Source of the DNA: Cyanidioschyzon merolae
Lineage: Eukaryota
Strand: one strand, 5' to 3'
DNA length: 64,000 nt
Assembly: GCA_000091205.1 (NCBI GenBank)
Contig: AP006500.2
Shown: piece by piece, positions 1 through 64,000 of the stretch
How the letters are laid out: the number at the start of each line of letters is the position of its first letter
How positions within the stretch are numbered: the first letter of the stretch is position 1
Notes under the pieces: model-generated
The model's input: only the letters and a program-made list of their open reading frames with translations
The model's database searches: none
What the model was told of the DNA's origin: nothing
Translations under genes and position numbers: made by a program

Positions 1-13
1 AGGCAGTCCTCTT

Positions 14-523: not shown

Positions 524-1517
524 GCTAGCATTTGAGCGAGATTGCTGCCGAATCATCGCCGTGCCCTGGCCCAGTGGATATCGCATGATGCATCGTTTAC
601 AGCGTTTCAGTCATGATCCTGGGTGGTGATTATCCCCGCCGGAATACCTCAGGACTAGATCGCGGATCGTTGGAAGCTACGCTCGCGTCCATCGCGTGTA
701 CCATGCGCTGCAAAAGTGGTGCTTGTCTGCAGCTCCTCAAAGAGCACATGATCGCTTGCTGTGCTGCGAGCACCACGCCGCCGGCCTCTGTCGGCAAACG
801 CGCTCAAAGGCGTACTCGCGACAAGCATGAATTCAGCAGGAATATTGGCGCTGGTTGAGGCACTGCGACTGACTATCGAGAGACCAATCTCAGCAACCGC
901 AGCATGCGTCGATCACTGGGGCGCAGCTTAAACTCCAGCAGCGATGCGGCAGTGTCAGAGCCAGACCTGCAGACTAGTGGACAGAGCGCAGCATGCCTCG
1001 TTCTGGATTTCGCAGAAGTACCCGCCAGAGACGCTTTTCAGGGTAGCCAGTGGCGGATCGCGTCTATTTCGCTACCGGGAATTCGGACGGATTCCGCGTC
1101 CAGTCGACCGGGGACGGTTCACGCTCTCCACTCGGACGTCAACGCGTTTCACTTTGGTGATGAAGGTGCTGCATTCATCGACCGACCAGTCTGCATGACG
1201 ATTCGAAGAACATCGGGCGGAATCTTTGATGCATACCTCTGGAGCATGATTCGCAGAGGTGTACTTTTTTGCGGGTCGTCGAGGTGGAGCGTGTGGCGAG
1301 AGCCACATATTTGAGCGACCTCGCACCGGGCGTGATCCAAGTCACCATTCGGCTGATGCTCAAGCGTGCCTCGCGTACCCGACATGTCGTTGCTCACCTT
1401 CGTGATGCTGGTGTGCTTCTGTGGGTAGCGCACTTGCGCCCGTTTGCGAAGCGTAGCGGACCTTGAGGACAAATGGCACGCTCCAGCAGCCATGCGCTTG
1501 CATAGGTCATGCATTCA

Positions 1518-2177
1518 TCATGTGATGCTTTCCAAAGCAGCACCCAGGGCGTGGTCATCAAACACGTCGTGGAAATCCCAGAACTGCACATTCCAGCGGG
1601 GGTGGTAGCGCCGACACCAGCGCTCAAACCCCTGGATATATGCGGGTCGCAGGTGCGCATCCAAAGCGTTCCGGAACGCCACCATGGACTCCTCGATGAT
1701 CGAGGGATCCATGAGAATGCTCCCCGACAACGGATCCAGCATCACCTTGACCGGAACATGCTCATAACCCCAGAAAGGCAGTTTCGTCCCGATATCGCCG
1801 ACCGCTGCCCATCGGAATGAAAACGGCACATGTCGCTGGAACGCTGCAGCGAAAGCGCGATTCCCGACTCGAGGCGACCCAAAAGTCACACTCATCACCA
1901 GATCCGATGACAGACGCAACGACTGTGAATTCTCAAAACACGTCATATCGAGGGCAGCGATGCTTGCCAGAGCCCCGCCGAGAGAGTGACCTCAAAAGAT
2001 CACCGGTTTGTGGTTGCAAGATGCACTATCCAAGGAGTTCATCGCACTACACGGTTGCGCTTCGCTCGCATCTGCATCTGCTGCTGCTGCTGCTGCTGCT
2101 GCATAGGTCAGTTGAGCGTTCTGTGCAGTCTCTGCTTCCCAGCGGCTGGGGTGCCGGCTGCACTGGGGTCCGCGCAT
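1518..2177 (-). pseudogene. class-3 (fungal-type) lipase, disrupted
   Basis: ORF 1518..1946 contains the Lipase_3 motifs 'GSPRVGNRAFA' and 'GHSLGGALASIAAL'. An in-frame TGA (1992-1994) occupies the conserved position directly before GHSLGG ('KPVIF*GHSLGG'). Reading frame changes upstream around the (CTG)8 run. Confidence 0.5.
2071..2100. repeat. (CTG)8 microsatellite
   Basis: direct reading: ctgctgctg... run. Confidence 0.9.
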
Positions 2178-2680
2178 CGAGATCCTATCAGGTTGAGGCT
2201 TTCCGAACGATACCGTCCATCAGGAAGCTTATCCATGATCCACGAATGCATCCTGATGTGCTGTTCAAGGAGCAGGTTGCTTCTTTCCATGCATAGCTCA
2301 TGCACCGCTGACAGGTGCCGCGTACGGACGCACGCACGGCTCGCGCAAAGCCGCCCAGACACTCAAAGGCGTCTGCGAAACCGTTCCATCAAATCAGACT
2401 TGACGCTAAAACGACAGCACTGTTCTGGTTGCAGCGTAACGTGGACGCGTCCGTATCGGAGTCGAGGTCTGGTCCTCGGGTCCAAGCAGCGTCGGTGCAT
2501 CGCCTAGTACCTGGTTCAAACGAGGGAACACCTGCGTGGATGCGGCTTCATGTGGAGTGTCCTATTTGTACAGTATACGACAACGATGCGCTGGAGAGGA
2601 TATTTTGGAACAATCATATATATTTAGGACAATAGTCCGCCGAGCGTTTCGGGATTTCAAATGCAAACGCCTCGGAACGG

Positions 2681-26567: not shown

Positions 26568-29264
26568 TGTGCTGGACTAGGCGTCTGTGAGCGACCACGC
26601 AGAACTCTATCACCAGCGCAAGATCCGCGCCAAGTATCTGGCCCAGCGCTGTAGCAATTATATCCGCAAGAAACACCCTCAAAAGCTCGTTCAACCAGGC
26701 TCGGCTGGGTGCCACCTCAAGAGCGCCCTGTGAGCGTGTACTGCCGTCGGTTCGCACGGCACCAATTGCCCCTCTACCGCGGGATCCCGTGTCTCAGAAT
26801 AGGGTCCGAAGTACCTGCGTTGAAAAGTCTGAGGTTACTTTCACCTCAGCGCTTCGCTAACTCGGTGAGCGCTCAGAAGAGGCGCTGCGGCGTTACCGCT
26901 ACGAACGTGGTCCACCGCGAGGTTCGTGTTCCCCCTGAAGACCGTCTCGACGAGCAGCCAAGCTCGCGTTTTCGTCTCTCCAAGCAACGTAAAGTTTCGC
27001 CCTCCAAAACAGACAGAATACCTCTGCAACGAGGCTTTGGCACGTTGATGAATTCCTTCACGAGCGTTTGCGTTTCAGAGCGTTCTGCACAGCACCAGCG
27101 CTATGCCCCGGAGTACTTACACCACACGAAGGCGTTTGAGCAAGCGCGAGCACAGTCCAAAACTGGATCAGGCACTGCTTCACCTGACAACTCGACGATG
27201 CGCGAGATGAAAACGCTCGGTTCCTGAGTCGATACCAAACGAAAACAAAACCTGTACGCGTTGTGCTGCCTTGCCGCGCTACAAACAGTTTCGGATGCGT
27301 GTTATTCGGGGCGAGGCGTCGTGCGCCCAGCGTGTGACACGTGTCCGTACACACGCATCATCGCTTTGGCATGGACATGCGCGAGGTACGATGCAACTGG
27401 GCGAATTTTTTTTTGTTTCACGGAACGTTTCCATGGATCAGGGATTCCAGATTGCGGGATGCGTATTGGTATTCGGAAAATGAGGGAAAATGCTGCATTC
27501 TACGTCCAAGTTCCATGACCAACACTTCCTCTAGGATATACTGGTCGTTTCGTACGTTCTATCGTGCACCGTGTACCTGCCTTGCTGCACGCGCCTTGGC
27601 GCGTATACCGTTGGTGCGGATGCAGTACGGAGACAGAACGGGATTGGCGTGCCGATGAGGGCTTCCGCTCGAGGAATGTTAGACCCGATACGGAGTCAGA
27701 ATTCATTATGATTCTGGGGGCCTGCAAGTTGCGCAGACAGAAGTACTTTATGCGACAGCGCGAAGCGAGATACTAGGACTCAACTGCGACCGGGGCGACG
27801 TCCAGACGCAAGCTACCCGCTCCTAGTCGCAGAAAGAAGTGCATTTCAGACGAGTTGCTGAGATACCACCAAAGTACCCGCCATTTGTGGAGCATGAAGC
27901 ACTCCACAGACAGACTCGTGCGGCTCGCGGGACTTTCCATTTAAAAGGTGAATCTTCGACAATACGGGATCCTTTTCTTCCCTGCAACGCTTGCTGCAGA
28001 GCTGGGAAGAAATTGCTCTCTCGTTGCTAGGTAGTAGTTCGGTTCTGTTTGTTTTTGCCAGTTCTTCGACATGGAGCGCAGCCCTGATCGCACATCGCCG
28101 ATGGCAAGAGGCGGTATCTGCGCGACCAGGTGTGCCTCTGTGCTGCATGGTTAGGGATACTGGTTGCGCAAATGGCAAGCAAGTTGTTGTCGCTGTTGCG
28201 TTCAGACCGACGTCTGCGTGCTCGCACTCCCACACCGGCGCATGGGTATGGTAGAGCATTTTCCAGTTCCGTGCGTTTGGAATCAACAGTTGATTTAGGA
28301 AGTCGTCGCAAGTACCTACATTGAATGCAGAAGCAGGAGCAGGTGTTGCTGGTTTTGGGAGCCGCCGTCCGACTCCCGCGAGCGCCTCGTAGCACCAGGT
28401 CTTGGACCGTTGACGCAAAGGCACGGCGTGATTTCTCTGCGGCAAGAGCTGTCTGTCGGGTTTCGGCATGCCGGGCACACTGGACCCTAGCCAAATCCGG
28501 ACCGGGTCGGGACGAAGCTCCCGTATGGCGCACTTGTGTCTGAAACGGTCTGCCTGCGCATCCGGAAACGTTCTCGTTCAGCTGCGCGTCATGTCCAGAT
28601 GATACCGGGCACCCGTCGAGCCGCCACAGAAACACGTCGTCCATCTGGGCACGCTTCAAGAGAAATGGGAATGTAGAGGCTGCTAAATGCCAGAGATAGC
28701 GCGCATTTACGTCCTGTTCCCACGAAACCGAGATCTATGCCGCGTCTTTTCCTTCTATCTCACCCGAAGGCACAACGTTCCAGCGGGTCGGATACGTCCG
28801 TGATACCTCTATCGACAAAGAGAACGCGCGAGTGCCACGGTAGGCGCGTATGAACCGTCCGGAAAAGAAGATGCGGACCATCCAGTGGCAGTCTGGAGCC
28901 TAACACCCACCACCTCAATTGCATACAACGACGATGACGGCTGCCAGAGGCACCCCGACCGAAACTACTTTTCATCAGTGACATTGCAACAACGTATTGG
29001 CCGTCCCCAAGGTATGATACAGCAGCAAAGCGGGTCCATTCGCAACGCGCACACGTCCTGCACGCACGATAGCCACGCATCGCCCGTGCGGCAACGGCAT
29101 CGGATGCCCGCAGCAGCGCCTCGTTTGCCGGATCGCGCGAAACAGGCCCTGGTGCACTCCCATATTGTTCTATTTTGTCCATGCGATCCTATGTGCGTGC
29201 GTGCGTGCGTGCCGCTCGACCTTATCCATGCGATCGGATTCGTGTGCGCGCGTGTATGTGCGGC

Positions 29265-31949: not shown

Positions 31950-33830
31950 ATATTCGGAGGTGGTGGCGGCTGCGGCCGCCCGCCGTTGCCAGGATTTCTG
32001 GCGGTACGCCTCCCGGTCTACTTGGACTAGGCACCTGCTGCTGATTTTGTTTTCTGCTTATATGATATCACCTTAAGAGGTTGCCCGACAAAGCTGGCTC
32101 TCATTAGCTCCGGGGGTCGCTTAATCATCAACACGCATCTTTCTATATTGATAGCGGCGTTAAAGTCTCGGTTCACAAACTCTATACGTTGATTGCCGTC
32201 GGTAGTTGTACTCACCAGTGCGAGTAGTCCAGGAACTTTTGCCCTGCTTTCCATTTGCTGTTTGGTCAGCGCTCCGTACTTTTTTATATCCTCAGAGTTC
32301 CACTGGCACTTTTGCATCTCGACCCTTTGGATTGTACACCTCGGCTCGTGGTGTGTATGTATGACGTTCGGAACTCATCTATCGGTATTGTGAGAAAACG
32401 GTGTGCGTACTCGTTGTACGCTCGTGTCGACGGAGCGGGCGTAGACTCTTTTTCGGACGCCCAGTGCCCTGATCCGTACGCTACTATAAGCCTTTGTCTC
32501 TCGTCTTCGTTCAGGGCACTCAACTGGTTGAAAAAGTTGGCAAATGCACGCTGCTTCCCATAGTATAAGTTCATGTGCTGACGAGCCCACCGGGCGGCTT
32601 GGTATACTCCTTTCACAGCTCCTCGTCATGAGCAGCGCGAAGTGGTATGAATTCTCAGAGGGCTCGAAAGTTCGCTCCGCGACTCGTCATTTTGCTGAAC
32701 TCCTCCCTGCTTACATCGAACTTCGGACTGATCTCTTTCATGATGCCGTAAAGGGCTGCGGAGTCGATTGTCACAAAATGTGCATTGATCTCGCATAACG
32801 GAACGACATGGAAGCGCTTACCCGGAAACGCAGCCATTCGTTTCTCCGACTCTTCATTTGCTTGCACACCTGGTTCCATCTCCGCCTTGCGTTCGAGTTC
32901 TCGGTCCAAAAACACGAAAGGGCGCAGGATTAGGCGATAGCATCTTTCTTCATCTTTTTTCAACGCTGGCATCTTTTTGTGCTCAGTTGACAAACCCTAG
33001 GACCGTGCGGCGCTCTTGGATGGCCACATGGAGTAGAGAAGCTTCATTCCTTCTCCTGCGTGACGTCTTCCTGTCGACGAATTCGATCTTCTGTTCATGC
33101 TGGCGATCGTCCGAAATGCCATTGATGATGGTCCGTATCCTTTTGCGAGAGAGGCGCGGGTAGAGTCCAAACATGGAACGTATCATGAAACGTTCGAGGT
33201 TCATGTTCAAATGGTTTTTCAGATTCGTGAGACACTTTTTAGACCCGTATTCATACATATTATCGTGACCCCTGTATCGAGTACTGTTGGAGCGGAATTT
33301 GGCGTAATTTTCGTGGAGGCCCTGCACTCGCTCATTTCTCCTCGACATTTCATATGTGCCCAGTATCAAGTGGCGAATGAAGGTCTTGTTGAAAAATTCC
33401 TTCGGAATCTCGGTTGTTTCCATATGCGTCACGTCGCGATTCGTCTCCCACACCAAATGCACGAGTCCTGAAGAACCGTTTCGAATGCTACTGGAGTAGG
33501 ACGCCACACGCTTTCTGATAGTCTCGTCCATCCTTGTCTCGTACGGATCCTTGCAATGTCCAAGAAGACAGGGTTTCACTACCATCTCGATGCACTGTCG
33601 TCTTTCTTGCAGCCATTGACGTCTGGCCTCCTGCCTTAGCTTCTTCGTGTTGTCTCGTTCATCCGGGATCGGCTCTGTTTTCGTTTCTTTCCGTCAGCCG
33701 GCGACAGTGGTCCTCCAGGATCCTCCACTTCCATGTCCATAGCTTGCCTTTTTACTTTTGAAAAAGAACGCACTTTAGACACTTCTGCTATAGACCCCGG
33801 AAAATCACTTGAGTAGACTATACTGGAGAT
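31950..33830 (-). mobile_element. old, internally deleted copy (copy 3) of the Fanzor/TnpB-like element
   Basis: Four -strand ORF fragments in different frames (32027..32317, 32284..32616, 32655..32993, 32983..33585) are homologous to the N-terminal, central and C-terminal parts of the nuclease in copies 1/2. RuvC-III 'FVNRDFNAAINIERC' and 'IPIDEFRTSYIH' are present. The RuvC-I region is deleted. Flanks show diverged homology to the copy-1 termini. Confidence 0.55.
32027..33585 (-). pseudogene. TnpB/Fanzor-like RuvC nuclease gene remnant (frameshifts plus ~250-aa internal deletion)
   Basis: see mobile_element 31950..33830. The N-terminal 200-aa ORF is ~50% identical to ORFs 49441..49707 and 48676..49398 of copy 1. 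Confidence 0.55.
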
Positions 33831-35541
33831 TAAAGTACAATGGAGATGAAAAACTATGCTTCGATATGACTTTAACGCGTATGCACCTTGTACGTTAGAT
33901 AAACACGCTAAGTGTAAGGATCGCATTTCCCTTCAATCACGAGATGCGCTTCCTATCTCACGCCTGCCAGATATGATGCTGCGAGTATCGACTGCACTAT
34001 ATAGAAAATAGAACAGAAATTATCCAATAACTAGCAACGAGATTGGGATTCCTTTCCGTCTCTACGATAAACGTTAAAAGGAGGAAAACGTTTCCACACG
34101 TTCAAAAGTCTACCGTATAGGCGGAAGGTCCAGCGACCCGGAAGAGTGCGCCGGGCTCGTGCTCCATACCCCCAATAGCAGGTGCTTTAGAGCGATCTGA
34201 GCAGCTCGTATCGAGCGCAATTCATTCTGGGATTCGAAGCGGGTAGTACGCGCCTGCGCGTCGCCCTGGTCTCCTTAGATATCGATTCGCGCTGTCGCAG
34301 GCAGTAGGTCCGTCTGCGCAGCTTGCAGGCTCCCAGCATGATCATTAGCCCTGATCCCGTGTCAGGTGTTGCGTTATTCGAGTCGACACCCTCAGTGGTA
34401 TGGCGAAGCCGTTTTGTCTCCGTGCAGCACCCGCTCCAGCGATATAGGCGCTATGGTAGGTTCCCAGGACAGGCACTTGGCTTACGATAGAACGCAAGAA
34501 ACGACCGGTGCGTCCGAAAGAATGCATAAGTAATGGAGCTTGAAGGTAGATGCTTCATGATGGACGCTTTCCAGATCATCAATACCCGTCCCGCAGCAAG
34601 GGATCCATGGTCACGATAAACGTTTCGTCATCTGAAAAAATGACAGCGGCTGCACGAAAGATTGCGCAAAGCGTTGGCTGATCGCCGCATATTGTTTGTT
34701 GGATGCGAGCATGTTGTCGATGCGTCTACATGGGTACGGCAATGGCAGCGCCTATTTGTTTGAACGCACTATGATTCCTGAAAGCAAGTCTGAGCGGCTA
34801 GTCGCACGACCTGTGGACTTGTGCAGCATGACGAATGCTGGTCTTGATACTGATCGTCATCGCACCGTTGGGGTTCCCAGGCTCGGTTCAACGATCCCAC
34901 TCGATTCGAAAAATCGATTCTGGAGCGTCCAAGCAGCACGTGCCTACTCAAGAAACCCTCATGGAAGGCACCAGCGCGCTTCTTCGCTCCACAGAGCCGA
35001 CGAAGGTCAGTGGCAGCAAGGCGGTATCGATGCTGATATCACGGGCGGAAGATCTCACGAACGTAAACAGCCCCCGTTTAGCCATTTTTGACACGGAGGA
35101 AGCCCTGTCACAACGCCACGGTTCCGCCCAGTGTGCCAGTGAAACACGGAAACCGCGATGCATGTTTCCGAGCTTCGCACATCTCATCAAGGCTTTCACG
35201 TTTGTTCTGCGTAGTCCTCTGAAAAATTTCCGGTGTGCCTTGGAGCCGGCCCCGGTTTCCATTTACAAAATAGAGGATTCTGTAAGCCAAAGGTCTTCCT
35301 ATGCGTACAACAGCGCTGCTGGTCGGATGTGTTTCAGCAGTATCGAACACCTTGCGCAGCGTTGCGAGGCGAGAGCCCCGTTCACGGCACCCGATGCGGT
35401 CGATAGCCCTGTATCATCATCCACGTGAGCATCCCGCACAACATTAACCGGCTTCGCAAGGCAGCACTAACCGTGGAATACGCACCGGCATCCGGTTCAC
35501 GGACTCTGCAAGATACATTCACTGCGCGTCAGTGCAGGCCG

Positions 35542-43324: not shown

Positions 43325-46300
43325 GTGTCGTTCGCGGTGGCAATGGCGTTCGTTACTTTCGGGGTCGTGTCTGGAGGCACCGGGCGGCAACCGCTAGCTG
43401 ACAGGTCACCGGCGTTCTTGAATCAGCACCCAAGAAAGACAAGCCGATCGGTGCGGTGTCGACGGCGAAGATTCTCGCGTAAAGTGTCTCGAAGATGTCT
43501 GCTGAAGCTCTGCAGCGTTGCTGAACGACAGTCATCCGACTCGGTGCGACGAGAGCAGGGACAGAAGCGGGGCAGCAGTAGCAGCGCCAGCAGCCGTGAT
43601 GAGCGCTATGCGCGGAACGCAGCGGAACAGCGCCAGGCAAGCGACTCTGTATCGACGGAGACGCGAGCCCGAGTGTCTCGAGCGCTCCTACAGGGCGCGC
43701 AGGGGGTGGGCCTCGGCCTCTACTGGATTGCTCGGCAAGCGGTGCGTGTATGTGTGCCGATGGCTCGCTCGGCGTTTAGCCAGCTGTCAACGCTTGTGCA
43801 AGACCATTCCAGTCGCGCGTTCACCTCAGTGGGGGTCCAATCACAGCCAGAACCGCATCATAAGCCGTACGTTGCATCTGAAGCGGACGAGGCAGCGCGG
43901 GCGCGGCCTAACGACACAGCCGTTGGTGCGGATCGTGCTCAGCGGCGATCTAATCATAAGAAACGGGGGCCACGTTCAGGTCCACCATCGGGAGCGAATG
44001 CTCCAGAGCAAGCAGACGAGATGTCAGCTCGACTGCGGAGAAAGTACCTTCGATCGTTTGGGAGCATTCCGGAAGTTGTACTCTTTGACCTTGTCGCCGA
44101 ATGTGAAATGCGAAAGCAATTTGCGCTACCAGAGGAGACTCCATCAAATATGTCGCTTTTAGGGCAGCGAGCCTGCTATATCCCGTATGAGCTGCAGCGC
44201 ATTATTTTCGACGAAATTTTGACGCCAGATTTTGCCGCCTCTGACGCTGACCGCGATCTGTTTCAGAGCAGCAATACATCCATTCCGCTCGGCGCCAAAC
44301 ACACGTTGCGAGCTACAGACGGCTCAGCGGCGTCCACCCCGAGAGCACCCGAGGTCGCTGTGCCGGTTCCCGTTCATATCATGGATTCGCTGGTGGCGGC
44401 TGTGGCACCCTGGAGCGCCGGCACTGGGAGTCCGGGGAGCGCACCAAAGGCGGCAAATTCGCCGAATGATTGGAGTCAAACTGCGACAGCGCCTCGAGTC
44501 GGGGTCCAGGGCGAGTCGCCGGCATCTACTTCCAACCTGGACGATATGGTACCTGCAGCAGCAGCAGCAGCGGCAGCAGCAGCAGGGCAAGTATCCGTGG
44601 ATTCTTCCGCCCGCAGGGGCAGCATGCTGTACATCCCGATATCGGCGCTCGGGAGCTTGTGGCAAGCCATCTCGGCAATGAGTGCGGGCGGACGCAAACG
44701 GCGCGAGGAGGCGCAACGTATTCGTACGTACTCGAATGCCGCCGACGCTATGGCTCGCGAGGATGCCGTTATGGCGGGTCTCGCTGGCGCAGACGGTGGA
44801 AGCACCATGGCCTCGGCATTTGCAACAGCGAGCGCCATTATGGCGAGCACACCGACGCGATCGCCATCGATACCCGTGCAGGGCGCCGAGGCTGGAACTA
44901 CCGCTAGTACGCGCGAAACGGAACAGAAGGCCTCGCGTCCAACAAATGGATCCGTGGAATCAATCGAGGTATTGAGCAGACCGCAGGCATCGGCTGCCAA
45001 CTTGGGCAATCAGCAGAAGCGAGATCGCACGGAGTCGAAAGAGGGGACGGGTGCGAAGCAGAGCGCACCAGTGAACCCGTCATCAGCGTCTGCTGCATCC
45101 GCTGCAGCTACCAGTACAGAAGTAGCTGCAGCGGATGCAGCAGAAAGTCCTCTGTCGAAAGACAAGACGAGAAACTGGTGGTCGACGCTTTTCTCGTTTA
45201 CTTGGCCACGCCCGCGGAACGCTGTCGACTCGGGATCTGCGACTGCGACTAACTCGGAGGATCATGCAATTGAATCCATCCAGCGCCTGTTGCTTTCACG
45301 ACATTACGGGGCAGGCGCTGGCCATGGCCCTGTGGATGCTGCCGTCTTCGATGAGCTCGTCGATCGAGTGGAGCAGCTGACGCTTCGCGCTGCAGCAGAA
45401 GCGGCCATGGCGATTCGCACGCGAAAACAAGCCATTGCATTTCTGGAAGAGGTAGGTGTGGCACCGTTGTTGAATGCACTGAGCATGACGGACTCGCTGC
45501 AGCTCTCGAGGCCGGATGCTGGACGCCGCAGGAACAGCAACAGCAACACCAACCTAGACGATGAAACCGCATCACAGAGAAAGCGCCCACAACAAGAACA
45601 GCAACGTGAAGCCGCCTTCACGGTATCCCTAGCTGTGGCTGCACTCGCAAATCTGACCAACGTCTTGCCTCGCTGCAAACCGCAAATCCTTCGTTATCCA
45701 GGCCTCTTGGATGGTCTGTTGCGTATCTTGGAAGCACCGGTAGCCGGAGAGTCATGGGAGATGCAAGGCAAGTGGAGCGCATGTATGCTCATCGGCACCC
45801 TGATGATGGATGCTGCCACGAGCGATCGTGCCCTCTTCTTCCGGAATCGTCGACTGGTTCGCGTGCTCGAGTCCATGGCAGGCGGCACACGGGTCGGCTA
45901 CCCGGAGGATGTTGCACGGGCATCGCGTCGGGCGCTCGCTTGTCTGGGCGTGCATCACTGGAGGCCGCGCGTTCGAGGCCAGCGCGGTTTGCGCATCCTT
46001 GCACTTGACGGAGGTGGCACTCGGGCGCTCATGTCTTTCGAGATTCTGAAGCACCTAACCAAATTGACTGGCTGCCAGTTGCATGAAATGTTCGATATCA
46101 TTTGCGGAACCTCGACGGGGGCGATTATTGCCGGCTCGTTGGGGATTCGCCGGCGTCCAGTTGAGGAGGTCGAGAGCCTCTACCGTGAACTAATCGGCAA
46201 AATTTTCGCCAAAAAGCTGAGCAGTGCGCCGAAAATGTTGCTCACTCGGGCCTACTACGATACGGACTTGTTTGAGAGCATTCTGAAACGTGAGGCAGGC

Positions 46301-47197
46301 TCATTGCGGATGATTGATTCCACCATGGACCGGGATATGAACTACGTGTTCTTCGTAAGCTCCGTGATGAATCGACGTCCGCACCAGCTGCATCTGTTTC
46401 GAAACTATTGCCACGCACCAGGCCAGGAGTCCAGATACCCAGGGACTGTGGATGCAACCCTATGGCAGGGTATGCGGGCCTCGTCGGCGGCTCCGACGTT
46501 TTTTTCGGAAATTGTATTGAATGGACTCATTCACGCAGATGGAGCTCTGGTTGCGAATAATCCCGCAGGGGTGGCAGCGCACGAGGCACGCCGCTTGTTC
46601 CCGAATGTGCCTATCGAGCTCTTGGTGAGCGTGGGAACCGGAGTCGCCGAGAAGACTAGCCCTCTATCGCCGCTAAGCACCACGGACAGTGGTGTGTCCA
46701 CGGGCACCAGAGAGGGCAGCGGTGGCGACGGCGGTGCCTCAACCGAGAGCGAAGCTGCGAGTGCGCTTCGTGAAGCTGCCACGACTTCGGCGATTTCCGC
46801 AAGTGGTGGTGATGGTGCAGATGCCGCAGCTGCTGCCGTCCCGAGCCGAATGAGCTGGAACGACGTGATCAACTCGATTGTGGACTCTGCAGTCGGCACC
46901 GAGAGTGTGCATCACATCCTGGAAGATGTGTTGCCTGCAGATGTTTATTTTCGATGCAATCCAGAGATCAGCGTGATGAATATTGATGAGGTTCGTCCCG
47001 GCAAGCTCATGGAAATGATTCGATGTGCACAGGACTACATCGCCGCGAATGCTGATCGCTTTGATGAGTTAGCGGCACGGCTGCGCCCGAAAATGCCCCA
47101 GAATTTACTAGAACGGATCCGTTTTGAGCTGCAACAGGAGGCCAGTCTGATTCTCGACTTGGACGATGCACGGGAAGGGCCACTTCCTGCGCTTTAG
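43325..47197 (+). CDS. patatin-like phospholipase with an N-terminal armadillo-like helical region (iPLA2/PLAI-like)
   Basis: 1290-aa ORF; patatin motifs 'ILALDGGGTRALMSFEILKHL' (GGGxR), 'ICGTSTGAIIAG' (GxSxG) and 'DGALVANNP' (DGA/G dyad); preceded by ARM-like repeats ('LANLTNVLPRCKPQILRYPGLLDGLLRILE'). Confidence 0.75.
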   Translation: MSFAVAMAFVTFGVVSGGTGRQPLADRSPAFLNQHPRKTSRSVRCRRRRFSRKVSRRCLLKLCSVAERQSSDSVRREQGQKRGSSSSASSRDERYARNAAEQRQASDSVSTETRARVSRALLQGAQGVGLGLYWIARQAVRVCVPMARSAFSQLSTLVQDHSSRAFTSVGVQSQPEPHHKPYVASEADEAARARPNDTAVGADRAQRRSNHKKRGPRSGPPSGANAPEQADEMSARLRRKYLRSFGSIPEVVLFDLVAECEMRKQFALPEETPSNMSLLGQRACYIPYELQRIIFDEILTPDFAASDADRDLFQSSNTSIPLGAKHTLRATDGSAASTPRAPEVAVPVPVHIMDSLVAAVAPWSAGTGSPGSAPKAANSPNDWSQTATAPRVGVQGESPASTSNLDDMVPAAAAAAAAAAGQVSVDSSARRGSMLYIPISALGSLWQAISAMSAGGRKRREEAQRIRTYSNAADAMAREDAVMAGLAGADGGSTMASAFATASAIMASTPTRSPSIPVQGAEAGTTASTRETEQKASRPTNGSVESIEVLSRPQASAANLGNQQKRDRTESKEGTGAKQSAPVNPSSASAASAAATSTEVAAADAAESPLSKDKTRNWWSTLFSFTWPRPRNAVDSGSATATNSEDHAIESIQRLLLSRHYGAGAGHGPVDAAVFDELVDRVEQLTLRAAAEAAMAIRTRKQAIAFLEEVGVAPLLNALSMTDSLQLSRPDAGRRRNSNSNTNLDDETASQRKRPQQEQQREAAFTVSLAVAALANLTNVLPRCKPQILRYPGLLDGLLRILEAPVAGESWEMQGKWSACMLIGTLMMDAATSDRALFFRNRRLVRVLESMAGGTRVGYPEDVARASRRALACLGVHHWRPRVRGQRGLRILALDGGGTRALMSFEILKHLTKLTGCQLHEMFDIICGTSTGAIIAGSLGIRRRPVEEVESLYRELIGKIFAKKLSSAPKMLLTRAYYDTDLFESILKREAGSLRMIDSTMDRDMNYVFFVSSVMNRRPHQLHLFRNYCHAPGQESRYPGTVDATLWQGMRASSAAPTFFSEIVLNGLIHADGALVANNPAGVAAHEARRLFPNVPIELLVSVGTGVAEKTSPLSPLSTTDSGVSTGTREGSGGDGGASTESEAASALREAATTSAISASGGDGADAAAAAVPSRMSWNDVINSIVDSAVGTESVHHILEDVLPADVYFRCNPEISVMNIDEVRPGKLMEMIRCAQDYIAANADRFDELAARLRPKMPQNLLERIRFELQQEASLILDLDDAREGPLPAL

Positions 47198-47228
47198 GGG
47201 ATGGACAAGCCACCACCGCCGTTCTAAG

Positions 47229-47396
47229 TCGAACGACGCCAACGGTATACAGTAGTGGCGACCGGCGCCCTAGACGAAACGTCTCCAACTGACGTGCAGA
47301 CGCCTCCCCGCCTTTTTGGACCGGCCACCTACTACTGCTTCCAACTTTTTCTCGTATAGTTCGACTTTGAGAGGTTGTCCAATAAAGTTCCCTCTT
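47229..47396 (-). ncRNA. candidate omegaRNA scaffold region (overlaps the 3' end of the ancestral nuclease ORF plus a short flank)
   Basis: The 3'-terminal block is far better conserved between copies 1 and 2 than the upstream coding sequence. It ends in a hairpin with an 8-bp perfect stem in the solo copy at 54379-54401. The position matches where TnpB/Fanzor omegaRNAs are encoded. No direct evidence of transcription. Confidence 0.25.
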
Positions 47397-49707
47397 CATG
47401 ACTTTGGAGGTGTTTTCTCCAGCACCGCACATCTCCGTATATTGATAGCGGCATTAAAGTCTCGGTTCACAAATTCCATACGTTTCTTCCCATTGGTAGT
47501 TGTACTTACTAGTGCACCTAGTCCTCGCACTTTCGCTCTACTTTCCATTTGCTCCTCCGTCAGCGGTCCATACTTTTTCATATCCTCAGGGCTCCTCTGG
47601 AAATTTTCCATATCCACTCTCTGAAGTGTACAACCCAGCTCATGGTGTGTGCAGGACGTTCGAAACTCATCTACAGGTATTGTAACAAAACGCCTTGCGC
47701 ACTCCTTGTACGTTCTTGTCGTTGGAGCTGGCGTAGTTCCTTTTTGGGTCTTCCAGCGCCCTGCTCCATACGCTATTACGAGCCTTTGAGTCTTGTCTTC
47801 TTTGAGGGCGCTCAACTTATTGAAAAAGTTCGCGAATGCCCGCTGCGTCCCACCGAATAGATTCATTCGCAAACGAGCCCACCGGGGCTTGATATACCCC
47901 TCCCACAGCGCATCCCAATGGGCAACACGAACTTCCATGAATTTCCGAAAAGCTTCAAAGTCCGCGCCTCGGCTCGTCACCTCGCTCGAAGATTCCAGGT
48001 GATCCTTCATTCCTGCATTCCATGCAGCAATTTTCTTCCTTGCATTCATTATACCGGACTCTCGATAGTATCTTGCTCTCGAGAACCTCAACAAATGCAT
48101 GTCTTTCAGACGTAAGTTGCCGTCAATGCAATCTTCCGCACACTTTGGTGCTGCGATGGTAATGATATTCGTGTTCCCAGGGTCCATGCCAATGACAAAG
48201 TCGTTATCCTGCACTTTCTGCGCCGCAGGACCCGCCTCGTTCTTTTCTTCATGCTTCGTCGCGTCAAGCATAAAGGCGTTATCCTGCACCTCCTGCATCA
48301 CAGGATCCGCCTCCTTCCCAACTTCATCCTTCGTCACATCAACGATAAAGTCGTTACCCTCAATCTCCTGCGCCACAGGATGCTCCTCTTTGTTTTCTTC
48401 ATGCTTCGCCGCGTCAACGACAAGCTTGTTATCCTCCACCTCCTGCGTCGCAGGTTCCGCCTCCTTCTCATCTCCATCCTTCGCCACGTCAACGAGAAAG
48501 TCATTATCCTCCACCTCCTGCGTCGCAGGATACACCTCTTTGTTTTCTTGATCCTTCGTCACGGGTGCAGCCGAGTGAGGGACTGGCCGATCTCTCTTCA
48601 ACCGCCGATAGTGTGCACACAAGGCTACTCCATCGGTTTCGATCATCCCAGTGAACAACTTTTGCTTGCTCACTCTCAGGCGTTTGAAATCGAAGATGTT
48701 CTTCCAGTACGTCTTCCGGTTTTCACCGGAGAATTCCTCCCTGCTGACACTGAACCCCGGACTGATCTCCTTAAAGATGCCGTAAAGGACGCCGGAGTCG
48801 ATAGTCTCAAAACTTGAATTGATCCTGGACAACGGATCAGCGTGGGAGCGATTCTCCAGAAGCGCAGCCTTCCCTCTCTCCGACTATTCGTTTTTTCCAC
48901 ACCCGGCTCCATGTCGGCCTTGCGTCCGTGCTTTCGGTTCAGAAACATGAAACAGCGCAGGATTAGTTGATAAAATCTCTCTTCGTGTTTTTTCATATTA
49001 GGTAATTTTCCTGTTGGACTGAGTAGCCCCAAGACCGCACGGTGCTCTTGAATAGTCGCGCGGATTACGGAAGCTCCATTTGTGCTCCTGCGTGATGTCT
49101 TCTTATCGACAAATTCGATCTCATCTTCATACTTTCGATCGTTCGTGATGCCGTTGATCATCCCCCATATTCCTTTGCGAGAGATGCCCGGGTAGAGTGC
49201 AAACACGGCGCATATCATGAAACGTTCCGGGTACATAGTTAAATGGTTCTTCAGATTCGTGAGGTACTTCTTCGGCCCGTAGGCGTAAATACACGAGTCA
49301 ACCCTGTATCGGGTACGCTCGAAGCGGTATTCGGCGTAGTTTTCGTGGAGAGCGTGCACTAGCACATTTTCCTTCCGCGCTTCCCCTGTACCAAGCATCA
49401 GGTGACGAATAAAGGTCTTGTGGAAAAACTCGTCTGGAATCTAGACCGTTTCCATGTGCGCCACATCGCGATACATCTCCCTCGCCAAATGCATCAGTCC
49501 TGACGACGTCTTGACAATACTCTTGGAGTACGAGTCGACACGTTTTTTGATAGCGTCCCGCAACTTTTCCTTGTAGGGATGCTTGATATGTCCAAGAAGA
49601 AAGGTTTTCACCACCATCTCGTCGTACAGCCGTCTTCCTTGCCGCCTTCGACGTAGGGCCTTACCGTTTCGGTCCTTCTTCTCTTCTTTTTGTTCTGGAC
49701 TCGGCAC
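47396..49707 (-). pseudogene. TnpB/Fanzor-like RNA-guided-nuclease-family gene (RuvC-I, Zn-finger-like, RuvC-III), disrupted
   Basis: Three collinear -strand ORFs (49441..49707, 48676..49398, 47396..48832). RuvC-I '[21 protein letters not shown]', 'LVIAYGAGRW', 'VTIPVDEFRTSCTHHELGC' and C-terminal 'FVNRDFNAAINIRRC' match the TnpB D...E/ZnF...DxNAAxNI layout. In-frame TAG at 49441-49443 ('METV*IPDEF' where copy 3 has 'METTEIPKEF'). Frameshift near 48700-48830, where copy 3 reads straight through. Stop is premature relative to copies 2 and 3. Confidence 0.7.
48197..48565. repeat. ~72-bp minisatellite (5 units) inside the copy-1 nuclease ORF, encoding 24-aa repeats directly N-terminal to RuvC-I
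   Basis: Units 'gtcgttatcctgcacNtcctgcgccgcaggacccgcctc...catgcttcgtcgcgtcaagcataaag' repeat head to tail. Protein repeats '[25 protein letters not shown]' etc. The last unit becomes '[14 protein letters not shown]'. Copy 2 has a single unit. Confidence 0.75.
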
Positions 49708-50151
49708 TATATTTGGGTTTTTTTGGCAGCCGGCGACACTGGGCCTCCAGGATCGTCGACTTGCTATTTACTAGCTTTTCCGTTTTTTAGTTTTTTTTTG
49801 AAAAAGAACACTCTTTGAACGCTTCTTTTATATTCTACGAATAAACACTTGACTAGACTTGTTTGAGGGCTGGAACAAAAACGAACTGAAAGACTGTACC
49901 TGGCTAAGACCTCAACAGAAAACCAACTTTTTACAGCTGAACACCACGCTATTGATACCAATCGAGTTTCCCTTTAACGGCGACGCGGCGCTTTCGGAAC
50001 TCGATCCGCCGCATCTCCCGGCTGGATCCTGCTGCGGTTCAGAGACCGCAAGTCGAAAAGTGTGTGGCTGTAGTTGAAGGCAAATATGGTGCACCACGCG
50101 GCAGTAAACAACAGAAATAGGTTGTGAGACGCGACAGTCGTGCGATGAAGT

Positions 50152-50943: not shown

Positions 50944-51094
50944 ACGATTTGAAATCGGGAGATATCAGTGCTGCTTGCGAATGCTGTCGGGGATGTAGCT
51001 CTGCTGCGCTCCGTTGGTTACATGGACAGGAAATTTGCGGATTCTTAAAAGATAGATACGTGACGCCGCTGCTAGCGAGCCCCTTTCAAAACAA

Positions 51095-53523
51095 AAACGC
51101 TGCCGCTATCAGTACAAAAGTGGCTACCAACGCGCCCTAGACGAAACGTCTCCAACGGACGTGCAGACGCTTCCCAGTCTTTTTGGACCGGCCACCTACT
51201 ACTGCTTCCAACTTTTTCTCGTATAGTTCGACTTTGAGAGGTTGTCCAACAAAGTTCTCTCGTGTCCACTCTGGAGGTCTTTTCTCCAGCATCGCACATC
51301 TCCGTATATTGATTGCAGCGTTAAAGTCTCGGTTCACGAATTCCATACGTTTCTTGCCATCGTTCGTTGTACTCACCAGTGCGAGTAATCCCCGAACTTT
51401 CGCCCTCCTTTCCATTTGCTCTTCCGTCAGCGGTCCGTACTTTATTATATACTCAGGGCTCCTCCGACGCTTTTCCATCTCAACCCTTTGAAGTGTGCAC
51501 CCCAGTTCATGGTGTGTAAACGATGTTCGGAACTCATCTATTCGTATCGTAACGAAACGCCTTGCGCACTCCTTGTACGTTCTTGTCGTTGGAACTGGCG
51601 TGCTCCCTTTTCCGGGTACCCAGAGCCCTGCTCCATACGCTACTACAAGCCATTGGCTCGTCCCCTTTGAGGGTGCCCGACTCATTGAAAAAGTTGGCAA
51701 ATGCACGCTGTTTTCCGCAGTACAGATTCATATGCAGACGAGCCCACCTGAGCTTCGCGTACTCTTCACACACCTCCTCGTCATGAGAAACGCGAATTTT
51801 CATGAATTTCGGAAGAAAAAAAGAAAGTTCAATCGACGGCTCGTCACGTGCCTGATCGCTTCCAGATTCTCCTTCACTCTTGCGTTCCATTTCTCACTTT
51901 GATTCCTCGCATTCATCATTGCTTGTTCTCTGTACTAACTCTCTCTCGAGAACTTTAAACGACGCATGTCGCTCTGGCATAAGTTGTCGTCAGCGCCATC
52001 TTCCAAACGTTTGGGTGCTACGATGGTTATTACATTCGTGGTCCCGAGGTTAAGGCCGACGACAAGATCGTTATCCTGGGGATTATACGTGCCAGGGCCC
52101 GTCTTCTTGTGTTCGTGCTTCGGCAAGGGCGACAATGTAGATGAGGTAGGACGATCTGCCTTCAAGCGCTGATAGTGTACACATATGGATTTCCCATTGT
52201 AATCGATCGTCCCCGTGAATGCCATTTTTTGCTCGTTTTGAGGCTCTTGAAATCGAAGATATTCTTCCAGTACGTCTTCCGGTTTTCACCGGAGAATTCC
52301 TCCCTGCTGACACTGAACACCGGACTGATCTCCTTAAAGATGCCGTAAAGGACGCCGGAGTCGATAGTCACAAAACTTGAATTGATCCTGGACAACGGAT
52401 CAGCGTGGGAGCGATTCTCCAGAAGCGCAGCCTTCCCTCTCTCCGACTATTCGTTTTTTCCACACCCGGCTCCATGTCGGCCTTGCGTCCGTGCTTTCGG
52501 TTCAGAAACATGAAACAGCGCAGGATTAGTTGATAAAATCTCTCTTCGTCTTTTTTCAAATTAGGTAATTTTCCTGTTGGACTGAGTAGCCCCAAGACCG
52601 CACGGTGCTCTTGAATAGTCGCGCGGATTACGGAAGCTCCATTTGTGCTCCTGCGTGACGCCTACTTGTCGACAAATTCGATCTCATCTTCATGCATGCG
52701 ATCGTTCGTGATGCCATTGATAATTGCCCAGAATCCTTTGCGAGAGATGCCCGGGTAGAGTGCAAACACGGCGCATATCATGAAACGTTCCGGGTACATA
52801 GTTAAATGGTTCTTCAGATTCGTGAGGTACTTCTTCGGCCCGTAGGCGTAAATACACGAGTCAACCCTGTATCGGGTACGCTCGAAGCGGTATTCGGCGT
52901 AGTTTTCGTGGAGAGCGTGCACTAGCACATTTTCCTTCCGCGCTTCCCCTGTACCAAGCATCAGGTGACGAATAAAGGTCTTGTGGAAAAACTCGTCTGG
53001 AATCTAGACCGTTTCCATGTGCGCCACATCGCGATACATCTCCCTCGCCAAATGCATCAGTCCTGACGACGTCTTGACAATACTCTTGGAGTACGAGTCG
53101 ACACGTTTTTTGATAGCGTCCCGCAACTTTTCCTTGTAGGGATGCTTGATATGTCCAAGAAGAAAGGTTTTCACCACCATCTCGTCGTACAGCCGTCTTC
53201 CTTGCCGCCTTCGACGTAGGGCCTTACCGTTTCGGTCCTTCTTCTCTTCTTTTTGTTCTGGACTCGGCACTATATTTGGGTTTTTTTGGCAGCCGGCGAC
53301 ACTGGGCCTCCAGGATCGTCGACTTGCTATTTACTAGCTTTTCCGTTTTTTAGTTTTTTTTTGAAGACGGACGCGTTTCTTACGTGTCTACTATAAACCA
53401 CGAAAAACACTTGACTAGATATGTTTGAGGTGTGAAACAAAAACGAACTGAAAGACTGTACTTGGCTACGACCTGAACGGAAATCCAACTTTTTTCGGTA
53501 GAACAACACGCTACTGATCAGGA
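51095..53523 (-). mobile_element. Fanzor/TnpB-like element, copy 2 (~2.4 kb), more decayed
   Basis: Six -strand ORF fragments in shifting frames (51137..51706, 51534..51890, 51935..52225, 52162..52395, 52368..52595, 52662..52961, 53004..53270). 5' half nearly identical to copy 1 (ORF 53004..53270 = ORF 49441..49707, 88/88 aa). 3' half about 80-85% identical, with the full-length C-terminus '...FVNRDFNAAINIRRCAMLEKRPPEWTRENFVGQPLKV...RFV'. Confidence 0.65.
51137..53270 (-). pseudogene. TnpB/Fanzor-like nuclease gene, copy 2, with multiple frameshifts and the same in-frame TAG as copy 1
   Basis: RuvC-I 'DNDLVVGLNLGTTNVITIVAP', 'LVVAYGAGLW', 'IRIDEFRTSFTHHELGC', 'NRDFNAAINI'. TAG at 53004-53006 identical to copy 1. 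Confidence 0.65.
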
Positions 53524-54333
53524 TGGCGTTCCCCTTCGACGAAGGCATGCGCATCGTGTCAGTTGACTGACTGATCTCCCAGTTGCGCTCATTTAGCGCA
53601 ATGCATCCACTGCGCGCGACGCTACTCCGATCGATGAAGGACACGTGTCCGATACCCCGCCTTGGCACATGCGTGTTCGCATCCCACTGCAGCCAAAATA
53701 AAGTATCGTAGATCGCAAACTCACGTAGAATGATCTCTTGCTACAGGCTCTGTCGCTGGTGCCCATTGCAGTACCGCCCTGACATACGTGGAGATGTAGG
53801 GGCCTGGCACGATACCTCGCGATGCTTCTAACAAAAGCATCGCGTTCTCTGCGGCTTACACTTGTGTGGATAAGGTACACAACACTGTACTCAATAGAAA
53901 TTTCGTTAATTTTATTGATCGTATATAAACAAGACACGGAATGATTCCTGACCAAGGATATTCGTTTAATCAATATGCTTGTTATGCATGCCGCACCGAC
54001 ACTGGAATAAGGACCTGAACTGAAATTTGCATCTATCCGGCGTCATGGGCTGGAACTGATACCCGTTCAAGTCATTGCCATCCTGCCGTGGTTGTCCAAG
54101 TAATGGTGCCTGCTTCGTCCTCCGGATCCGGCGATCTTGGCAGAGGCAGAGCACGTAGGTAGCGTCCAAGTCTGCCACGAGGTTTGAGCCTTGCATCTCG
54201 CCTGGCACGATCGTGGCACTTGACAAAAGCGCATACTGTATTCTGGTCTACTCTATCAGATTATTTTCAAGAGCCTAACCCGTACATCGAGCCCGAACGA
54301 GGCACCCCTGGAAAGAAACGCCTTTCGAAAGTC

Positions 54334-54400
54334 GAACGGCGCCAGCGGTGTACAGTAGTGGCGAGTGGCCCGCCCTAGAAATGACGTCTGCAACTGACGT
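54334..54400. repeat. solo 3'-terminal fragment of the Fanzor-like element (~65 bp) with a perfect hairpin
   Basis: 'agtcgaacggcgccagcggtgtacagtagtggcgagtggcccgccctagaaatgacgtctgcaactgacgtgcagacgc' aligns to 47229-47290 and 51095-51170; stem 'cgtctgca'/'tgcagacg' with a 7-nt loop; homology stops abruptly after the hairpin. Confidence 0.5.
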
Positions 54401-54793
54401 GCAGACGCATCCAAAATAAGATACCACCTCAGGAAATTTCCTTATACCTCCTCTACGGTATTCGTCGGCGAGCTACGTGGAAGTTCGTCTACGATTGTTG
54501 TGATCTCTGAGCGCAGCACTGCGGAACCCTTGGCACCAATTACTGATGAGGTTGTTGATGGGAAGCATAGGAGTTCTGTCTAGTTTCTGAAAAAGACACT
54601 GAGCGCTTGTGCTAGATGTGCTCAACGCTAGACAGTCTACGGGAGATTTAGGTCGGACTCTGGACAATTGACGGGCGATCACTCGTGCAGCTACGCAAAA
54701 GAAGTTTTTTGCTGGATACGCACACCTATGCGAGCGATTCTAGCCGGTGACGTGATCGGCAGCTTTGCACCGGAGAAAATCTAATCCAAGAAA

Positions 54794-55869
54794 ATGCAAG
54801 CCCTATTCGTTTCTGTTCCGCTGTACCAGGAAAGACATATTGTTTGCGCGCGCGCTGCAACTCGAGCACCGTTCCCGCTGTGTACCGAACATGACAGGTG
54901 CTTCGCAGCTCGATACCGTCACCGCTGTCACCATCCGCTGCCCGTGGGGGTGCAGCGTTCGCCTGTAGTGCGCCGGCATCGTATGCCGCATCTTCGTATG
55001 GGCCCGAAACAGTCGCAGATCGCCGTGATCACTGGCTCGTCCTCTGGGGTCGGTCTGTATGCAGCTCGCGCTCTGATCAACAAGGGCAACTGGAACATCG
55101 TCATGGCATGTCGTGACGTCGACCGGGCGGAACGTGCAGCAAACAGCGTGAACCTTCCAAAGGACGCCTATACAGTGCTGCATTGTGATCTGGCAGATTT
55201 CGCCTCTGTGTTGAAGTTTGTGAGAGCGCTATCGAGTGTGGCGCGCATCGATCACCTGGATGCCCTGATCTGCAATGCCGCAATATGGCATCCGCAGGAC
55301 AAGAAACCGCGTTTCACGGTGGGCGGCATCGAGGAAACCATGCAGGTTTGCCATCTGAGCCATTTGCTTCTCTGTGGGGAGCTGTTGCCGAAGCTGAAAA
55401 AATCGCGCAGGCGCATTGTGTTTCTGACGACTCAGACACACTCGCCGAATTCGTTGCCGGGAAAGATCCCCCGCTGGCTCGTCTCGGGGATTCGTCTAGT
55501 CTAGCCGCGGGGCTTGGTCCGCAGACGACGGACATGGTAGAAAGTGGCCCGTTTGAGCCCACAAAAGCTTTCAAAGACGCCAAAGCCGAGAACGTGTTGA
55601 CAATGAAGGCGCTCAGTGATCGATACGGCCGCGACGGGGTGACCTCTGTGGCGATTTTCCCGGGATGTGTCGCCGACAGCAACCTCTTCCGCGAAAAGCG
55701 TGGCTGGTTCCGCTACGTATTCTTCCCGATTCTTCAGAAGTACATCACTCGGCAATACTTTCCCAATGATGAGGCCGGACGCCGTGTAGCCGAAATGGCG
55801 ACCCAGGGACAGTTCTCGGACTCGGGCTCGTATTATCAGTGGCGTGGCAAATATACGGATGGGGGATAG
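54794..55869 (+). CDS. por: light-dependent NADPH:protochlorophyllide oxidoreductase (POR), with a +1/-1 frameshift at a C5 run near 55475-55480
   Basis: ORFs 54794..55504 and 55285..55869 together align to POR from memory: 'IAVITGSSSGVGLYAARAL..WNIVMACRDVDRAERAA..LPKDAYTVLHCDLADFASV', 'ICNAAIWHPQDKKPRFT', 'YKDAKAENVLTMKALSDRY', 'FPGCVADSNLFREKRGWFRYVFFPILQKYITRQYFPNDEAGRRVAEM..SDSGSYYQW'. Frames switch exactly inside 'aaagatcccccgctg'. Confidence 0.75.
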
Positions 55870-63600: not shown

Positions 63601-63982
63601 GGAAAACGATTCGACAAGAATATAAGCAGAAATATATCGAAAATAACATAAAGTGAGCATTTTTTTTTTGTTCGGTTAAGATATTTGTGTTCCAATGGAG
63701 ACAACCTGGCACCGAGAAAGCAGCGTTTAAGTACTGTGAGATGTTGAGAGTAAAAAAAAGAAAACAAAAAATGGTGAAGAACAACACACACAAAAACAAC
63801 ACAAGCGAGCGCGCGATTCAGACCATGCGCGACGGCCAGGGCCAAAAACATAGGAAACGGCGAGGCGGTCACGCTAAAATGCATCGATACTACTGCGCGT
63901 ACAGGAGAATCCAGGTAGCCAAAAACAGAAATATGATGAAAAGGATTCCCCTCGGACCCATCGCTAGAGACATAATTACTGG

Positions 63983-64000
63983 AATGGGGGGAATGGGGGG
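63983..64000. repeat. telomeric repeat (AATGGGGGG)2 at the window edge
   Basis: Two perfect tandem 9-mers end the sequence. This unit is, from memory, the telomere repeat of Cyanidioschyzon merolae. It is preceded by a 3.3-kb AT-richer ORF-poor stretch typical of a subtelomere. Confidence 0.55.

Follow-up and report, generated by a model that had tools for sequence, protein, structure and literature searches.

A decayed copy of the Fanzor1-encoding repeat CMe-1A near the right telomere of chromosome 18 of Cyanidioschyzon merolae

The 64,000-nucleotide stretch of DNA analysed here (the window) is the right end of chromosome 18 of Cyanidioschyzon merolae 10D (a 1,253,087-bp contig), since the repeat GGAATGGGGGGAATGGGGGG that closes it at 63979-64000 is the species-specific telomere repeat AATGGGGGG of this alga (PMC1955436); standard telomere repeats (TTAGGG and similar) were sought in the window and none was found. 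About 14 kb from this telomere lies a degenerate minus-strand element, here called copy 1, which is almost certainly a decayed, 5'-truncated copy of CMe-1A, an interspersed repeat of C. merolae that encodes a Fanzor1 protein. An earlier note, made from the sequence alone, had described at 47229-49962 a mutated TnpB- or Fanzor-like RuvC nuclease gene in a multi-copy element near a chromosome end, and in these respects the description has held. Its limits lie within ~20 bp of those obtained by alignment (47217-49983), and all four of the motifs that it quoted, VNRDFNAA and FVNRDFNAAINIRRC among them, occur in one minus-strand open reading frame (ORF), the longest that survives in the element.

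The 3' boundary of copy 1, ...GAACGGCG at 47217, was set by comparison with 60 other copies, and the 5' limit is the point where similarity to the family consensus and to a second copy in the window (copy 2) ends. The N-terminal part of the protein lies upstream of the surviving ORF in another frame, in the segments 49398-48676 and 49707-49441 (48676-49398 and 49441-49707 in ascending order). After correction of the frameshifts, the full reading frame amounts to ~830 codons, including a 300-bp in-frame repeat expansion. This expansion stems from an in-frame minisatellite with acidic units, of which copy 1 has five and the consensus one, so that four extra units add 300 in-frame bases. Several units are also present in the relatives P0005 and P0003. 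A search with the copy 1 ORF returned 166 homologues at E<=1e-3, the best of which is 95% identical.

CMe-1A was named in the founding Fanzor paper of Bao & Jurka 2013 as a family of ~150 copies, each ~80% identical to a 3169-bp consensus, that has no terminal inverted repeats (TIRs) and whose target-site duplications were left undetermined; the first 635 bp are common to the repeat TE-N2_CMe, and the element encodes a 734-aa Fanzor1 protein, CMe-1 (PMC3627910). We took the consensus and the CMe-1 protein from the supplements of that paper and aligned them to the window by blastn and tblastn. Over 47237-49983 the consensus is matched with 82-89% nucleotide and 69-85% amino-acid identity, and a global alignment of copy 1 to consensus positions 702-3169 gives 85.6% identity. 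Copy 1 and CMe-1A have in common the host, the protein, the absence of TIRs and the state of the copies, which are old and mostly degenerate. They differ in that copy 1 is inactivated, carries four extra 75-bp units and has no counterpart of the first ~700 bp, the part shared with TE-N2_CMe. A complete ~3.2-kb unit with this 5' part is therefore not what copy 1 represents, as similarity begins at consensus position 702 and the sequence upstream is unique. Copy 1 is one member of CMe-1A and not a separate entity. The family is multi-copy, with three copies and fragments in the window (Table 1) and 71 loci in hot-spring metagenomes, and the element is accordingly no product of chance. Copy 3 is an older copy; it has a TE-N2-type 5' part and has lost consensus positions 1950-2401.

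Table 1. Positions in the window of copy 1, its parts and the other CMe-1A sequences
Feature	Coordinates	Strand	Description or basis
CMe-1A Fanzor1 element, copy 1	47217-49983	-	2.77 kb, 5'-truncated; consensus 702-3169
Degenerate Fanzor1 reading frame (consensus protein CMe-1, 734 aa)	47270-49774	-	Three-frame translation, tblastn with CMe-1, codon-aware alignment, codon checks
Longest surviving ORF, 478 codons, TTG start	47396-48832	-	From the WED 'IETDGVA' motif through the RuvC domain
RuvC-I catalytic Asp (DPG within GMDPGNTN)	48182-48184	-	D in 81/82 relatives; aligned to DPGR/DPNK of PpFz and SpuFz chains
RuvC-II 'alternative' catalytic Glu (VDEFRTS)	47666-47668	-	E in 78/82 relatives; aligned to DEFRTS/DEYKTS of PpFz and SpuFz
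RuvC-III catalytic Asp (NRDFNAA)	47459-47461	-	D in 79/82 relatives; aligned to NRD of PpFz and SpuFz
In-frame 75-bp minisatellite, 25-aa units	48190-48563	-	Linker just before RuvC-I
Structured 3' terminus, candidate omega-RNA scaffold (putative)	47217-47340	-	Folding energy, pairing across copies
Copy 1, blastn match	47237-49983	-	Consensus 702-3145, 82-89% identity
Copy 2	51082-53576	-	Consensus 671-3167, 82% identity
Copy 3	32006-34632	-	Consensus 2-3080, internal deletion
Solo TE-N2-like piece	27424-28049	+	Consensus 10-632, 79% identity
3'-end fragment	54319-54412	-	Consensus 3073-3169

The earlier note knew of no described member from this host lineage, and here it was mistaken: the family is already known, having been counted as a repeat in 2007 and classified as Fanzor1 in 2013. 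Nozaki et al. 2007 described a novel interspersed repetitive element of 253 copies, 3.2 kb long on average, that makes up ~5% of the C. merolae genome, is spread across all chromosomes, is transcribed, and has an ORF that is truncated and bears a weak likeness to WSV486 from white spot syndrome virus (WSSV) (PMC1955436). WSSV in turn carries a Fanzor1 (PMC3627910). Because the host and the size of ~3.2 kb are the same, and because the ORF of the repeat resembles a gene of a virus that has a Fanzor1, we infer that CMe-1A is the repeat of Nozaki et al., an identification made in neither paper. Later surveys also list Fanzors in rhodophytes (PMC10530073).

Copy 1 is dead. Its start codon has been lost (ATG to AGT), 1-bp deletions near 49724 and 48896 have shifted the frame twice, and four stops interrupt the consensus frame, at 49766, 49443 and 48886 and as a premature TGA at 47396-47398, 42 codons ahead of the original stop at 47270-47272; nor does the element retain any of the 5' modules that precede the coding part in other copies. 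Copy 2 (51080-54318, minus strand), which is apparently of full length (~3.24 kb), has lost its start in the same way and repeats both deletions and three stops; in all, its ORF is broken by five frameshifts and five stops. Identity between the two copies is 94% in the 5' halves and 78% in the 3' halves. Since the lesions are common to both and the 5' halves nearly identical, the shared part was duplicated or converted within the subtelomere after the gene had been inactivated, and the two copies are not independent live insertions. Among 79 sources (the window and 78 loci), an ORF of >550 codons that is free of interruptions and contains every motif was seen in a single one. Across copies, identity to the consensus is lower at third codon positions (0.79-0.83) than at first and second positions (0.84-0.92), and for this reason the CMe-1A copies are taken to descend from master elements that were under selection at the protein level. 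The decay of the sequence is uniform along the element.

Membership of the copy 1 family in Fanzor1 is supported by both homology and fold. When the 752-aa relative P0005 was used as the query of an exhaustive phmmer search, 1232 cluster representatives were obtained at E<=1e-3, of which 613 reach E<=1e-10. Two profiles, one of 46 diverse representatives and the other of 82 sequences from a separate search, were compared with 177,635 PDB sequences, and both matched Fanzor1 chains only: Parasitella PpFz (9CF0; E 1e-21 with the profile of 46 and 7e-20 with that of 82), Spizellomyces SpuFz (8GKH; 7.6e-13 and 7.6e-15) and Guillardia GtFz (9CER; 2.6e-7 and 1.7e-3). No TnpB, Fanzor2 or Cas12 chain was reached in these searches at E<=1. 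The profile alignments are co-linear through the REC region, the WED motif 'F.G.I.TDG', DPGR, DEFRTS and NRD, and the one to PpFz begins at profile position 144-148. A shallow 14-sequence profile reached SpuFz1 at E=2, which is not significant, and a homologue search with a 3-sequence alignment was dominated by close relatives and added no diversity. An AlphaFold model on a shallow alignment had a predicted local distance difference test (pLDDT) score of 41, and no fold search was based on it. With the 82-sequence alignment, AlphaFold2 modelled P0005 with a pLDDT of 83.1 and a predicted template modelling (pTM) score of 0.81. The sole low-confidence stretch of this model is residues 378-470, the equivalent of the repeat linker, which is modelled as disordered (pLDDT <50). 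When the model was searched against the PDB with Foldseek, the top seven matches were SpuFz, PpFz and GtFz (E 3.3e-16 to 1.2e-13, template modelling (TM) score up to 0.72, normalized to the target), followed by Cas12o, Cas12f and Cas12i at E>=0.01. The assignment to Fanzor1 is thus made because profile matches are confined to Fanzor1, the predicted fold agrees and the element is a copy of the published Fanzor1 family CMe-1A.

The order of strands and helices around the catalytic residues of the P0005 model is that of an RNase H/RuvC fold, with a first strand that ends in the Asp, a fifth strand followed by the Glu, and a last helix that has the Arg-Asp pair at its start. In the relatives, the columns of the DPG motif hold D in 81/82, P in 78/82 and G in 81/82 sequences. 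The RuvC domain of Fanzors has been defined by DPG at RuvC-I together with an 'alternative' Glu, located six residues before the zinc finger, that replaces the canonical Glu of TnpB (PMC10711439). Copy 1 has the DPG Asp as well as the RuvC-III Arg-Asp near the C-terminus, and its VDEFRTS segment supplies the alternative Glu, just upstream of [TS][TS]; the canonical strand VIAYGAG lacks a Glu. The earlier note had assigned RuvC-II to RLVIAYGAGRW. This strand (QRLVIAYGAGR at 47756-47788, minus strand) is indeed the one where TnpB has its canonical Glu, but it contains no acidic residue, and the catalytic Glu instead lies in the segment that the note took to be zinc-finger-like.

The protein has no zinc finger. 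Between the alternative Glu and NRD, none of 79 relatives has a pair of CxxC or Cx2-4C motifs (0-3 Cys each), nor has copy 1, and where other Fanzors have the CCCC finger, the CMe-1 clade has a short hairpin poor in Cys. Such a finger is common to SpuFz1 and ISDra2 TnpB (PMC10432273), and the Fanzor motif of Bao & Jurka 2013 includes a C4 zinc finger between RuvC-II and RuvC-III (PMC3627910). The motif as published is not universal, because its authors listed CMe-1 as a Fanzor1 although it fails the zinc-finger clause.

The solved Fanzor1 structures SpuFz1 (8GKH), PpFz1 (9CF0) and GtFz1 (9CER) (PMC10432273, PMC11423790) share with CMe-1 the fold, the co-linear REC-WED-RuvC order and the catalytic DPG, DE[FY].TS and NRD motifs. 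Yet CMe-1 is only 12-15% identical to them, its hairpin takes the place of their CCCC finger in the NUC domain, and the C. merolae element has no associated transposase. The last point also sets it apart from the Fanzor1 genes borne by Tc1/mariner elements (PUl-1, PGv-1; PMC3627910), as CMe-1A has neither a transposase nor TIRs nor TA duplications, and combines varied 5' modules with one 3' end. A link to such elements is nevertheless seen in distant relatives of CMe-1, the P0120 group (contigs L002-L005; identity ~41% with P0005 and ~46% with the window ORF), which lie directly downstream of a DDE_3 (Tc1/mariner-type) transposase gene in 4/6 contigs, an arrangement that matches the Fanzor1-in-mariner cases of the 2013 paper.

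Fanzor1 proteins are omega-RNA-guided double-stranded DNA endonucleases that depend on a target-adjacent motif (TAM), and the omega-RNA is encoded at the right end of the element (PMC10432273, PMC11423790). The CMe-1A copies have a sharp common 3' boundary, ...GAA(A/C)GGCG, beyond which the flanks vary. It is mostly followed by TT, these two bases being T in 34 and 39 of 43 distinct flanks, and past ~11 nt the flank is essentially information-free. The last ~125 nt can fold into a long helix, CAGUAGUGG.../...CCACUACUG (CAGUAGU.../...ACUACUG), which spans the stop codon, together with an inner and a terminal hairpin. For copy 1 the minimum free energy of the 3' end is -61.9 kcal/mol (z -5.9), and three other copies have z-scores of -4.2, -2.8 and -1.6. 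Across 42 copies, 82% of cells pair in this structure, as compared with 37-61% when the partners are slid. RNAalifold found no consensus structure in the 42 3' ends, and a search of Rfam, run also at permissive E-values, gave nothing above the gathering score, the sub-threshold matches to mir-156 (29.8 bits against a cut-off of 62) and sR30 being chance ones. The 3' end is compatible with an omega-RNA scaffold followed by a guide in the flank, and we treat it as a candidate only.

An intact member of the family would be a protein of ~734 aa, built like the solved Fanzor1 nucleases, in which an N-terminal REC region of helices is followed by a WED domain and by a RuvC domain in separate parts (DPG Asp, DEFRTS Glu and NRD Asp), with a short hairpin instead of the CCCC finger. 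By analogy with the characterized Fanzors, it would associate with an omega-RNA whose template is the 3' end of the same element, the guide would correspond to the DNA just past the boundary ...GGCG[TT], and the complex would cut matching double-stranded DNA beside a TAM, which would help the element to persist or spread. It is from homology that we infer omega-RNA binding, RNA-guided cleavage and a possible role in mobility.

Several observations weigh against this picture of copy 1 and its family. Homology to Fanzor1 is detectable only by profiles or by structure. A single-sequence phmmer search of the ORF against the PDB gave chance matches only, the Pfam scan returned no match to the copy 1 ORF, and nothing above threshold was obtained for the window ORFs and five relatives; the precomputed label PF26935 is weak and denotes only a domain of unknown function (DUF8286). 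The reading of the earlier note nevertheless withstood the refuting conditions that it had named: family profiles match Fanzor1 chains, and the model of P0005 has a RuvC-type fold. With respect to the candidate omega-RNA, two further copies have z-scores of -0.4 (copy 2) and -0.5, so that copy 2 folds no better than its shuffles, and the covariation in the hand-specified structure of the 42 copies does not rise above that in shuffles (129/500). The only source with a long ORF has neither the consensus start nor the C-terminal tail. No biochemical report on a C. merolae Fanzor was found in the literature searched, and the activity of even intact CMe-1 members is not guaranteed, because the CCCC zinc finger is absent from the whole clade.

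Other explanations of copy 1 have to be set against its reading as a dead CMe-1A copy. One is that the surviving 478-codon ORF still yields a shortened, working nuclease of WED and RuvC domains. In favour of this are its length, the survival in it of the three catalytic residues, an ORF 95% identical to it in the environmental relative P0001, and the reported transcription of the repeat family (PMC1955436). Against this, it begins at TTG in a eukaryote, lacks the N-terminal REC region (~290 residues in the model and in solved Fanzor1), ends 42 codons early at a TGA and has no 5' module or promoter region in front of it; moreover, its lesions recur in copy 2 and nearly all copies are broken in like manner, so that we hold such an activity to be exceedingly unlikely. 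Copy 1 might also be kept for some function of the host subtelomere, as a source of non-coding RNA or as a substrate for chromatin or recombination, rather than being neutral debris. Three copies and fragments do lie within 27 kb of the telomere (<=27 kb), copies 1 and 2 have undergone homogenization in their 5' halves, the family is transcribed according to the same report and copy 1 has a 3' end with strong structure (z -5.9). However, the repeat occurs on all chromosomes (PMC1955436), the decay is uniform along the element, the 3' structure shows no covariation, and nothing sets copy 1 apart from the 70 others examined, which makes a host role very unlikely.

The remaining alternative, a bacterial-type TnpB (of IS200/IS605 or IS607) or a Fanzor2 gained by horizontal transfer, seems to us next to impossible. 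TnpB of IS200/IS605 (ISDra2) and type V Cas12 do share with CMe-1 the RuvC-based architecture of an RNA-guided nuclease, there are weak fold matches to Cas12f, Cas12o and Cas12i, and copy 2 (E 0.024) and one relative have a sub-threshold Pfam match to Cas12f1-like_TNB. Yet the profile searches reach Fanzor1 alone, Cas12 proteins trail Fanzor1 by 13 orders of magnitude in the fold search, and three traits of CMe-1, its DPG motif, its alternative Glu and its long N-terminal extension, are those of Fanzor1 (PMC10711439). In CMe-1 the canonical RuvC-II Glu has given way to Gly (AYGAG). The compact size (~400-500 aa) and the adjacent TnpA gene for a Y1 or serine recombinase expected of TnpB or Fanzor2 were not seen, as the protein has ~734 aa and no TnpA-like ORF was found beside the element; a CRISPR array is likewise lacking. 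The reading of copy 1 as a decayed member of the Fanzor1 family CMe-1A is therefore preferred.

In this family, at least three unrelated 5' modules are found upstream of consensus position ~650-690, namely the TE-N2 type, a 743-bp type and an A-rich type. The 743-bp module contains the palindrome GGACACGTGTCC, is carried by copy 2 and is unrelated to the published consensus; both it and the TE-N2 module start with CGATG. Elements were also seen in head-to-tail pairs. Among ~43 distinct 3' flanks there are four independent instances in which ...GGCG is followed, after 18-56 nt, by another module that points the same way. One of these is in the window, where the 95-bp 3'-end fragment lies ~25 nt upstream of the 5' module of copy 2, and the others are at L063:2517-2952 and in the L025/L038 and L010/L037 flanks. 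Four pairs are far above what random placement of ~250 copies in 16.5 Mb would give; tandem duplication or targeted insertion could account for the pattern. The metagenome contigs L010 and L041 are 80-90% identical to window positions 53500-55642 (the 5' region of copy 2 and 1.3 kb of unique flank), and carry the same insertion, either in related Cyanidioschyzon populations or in a paralogous subtelomeric block. That the upstream 3'-end fragment forms a terminal direct repeat was rejected for L010 and L041, whose flanks are homologous to the window and hence belong to the same locus or block. Retroposition in trans after the manner of a long interspersed nuclear element (LINE), with 5' truncation and a 3' simple repeat, was set aside as well, because most of the apparent truncations at ~650-690 are junctions with alternative modules; that only the first two bases of the 3' flank (TT) are conserved also counts against a LINE-like 3' simple repeat.

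The copy 1 locus itself is of little importance, being one dead copy, and the value of the present result lies in its correct label. The family is another matter. It takes up ~5% of a genome in which transposons are otherwise scarce, it encodes no transposase, and its clade lacks the zinc finger; trials of an intact member, both as a nuclease and as a model for the movement of Fanzor elements, could therefore be rewarding. One fixed 3' end, interchangeable 5' modules that start with CGATG and four head-to-tail pairs hint at self-propagation. A wider proposal, that CMe-1 is part of a large zinc-finger-less Fanzor1 clade (613 cluster representatives at E<=1e-10) with its catalytic triad kept, and that such transposase-less elements may spread or persist by means of their own RNA-guided nuclease, inserting beside resident copies, is speculative and taken as a whole rather improbable. 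If true, Fanzor-driven spread would provide a eukaryotic case of self-propagation in a 16.5-Mb genome almost free of other transposons, and the family would supply a nuclease that does without the zinc finger and comes from an alga living in acidic hot springs.

As to the surroundings of copy 1, nine of the window's ORFs match proteins of C. merolae 10D exactly, all in the range BAM82644-BAM82656. The annotated genes on either side of the element encode a patatin-like phospholipase (BAM82654) and a cupin (BAM82655). As these flanking accessions are consecutive and the search for homologues of the copy 1 ORF returned none from the NCBI source, they indicate that the element ORFs carry no protein entries in the C. 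merolae 10D annotation. Just 19 nt separate the 3' end of copy 1 from the stop codon of the phospholipase gene (43343-47197, plus strand; interval 47197-47217), and a hypothetical omega-RNA guide drawn from this flank would therefore overlap the last codons of that gene. Farther towards the telomere, the 'similar to hedgehog protein' gene BAM82656 (58469-60667, plus strand) has a close paralogue, BAM80407, on another chromosome (852,849-bp contig), which fits the subtelomeric blocks known to be shared in the C. merolae genome.

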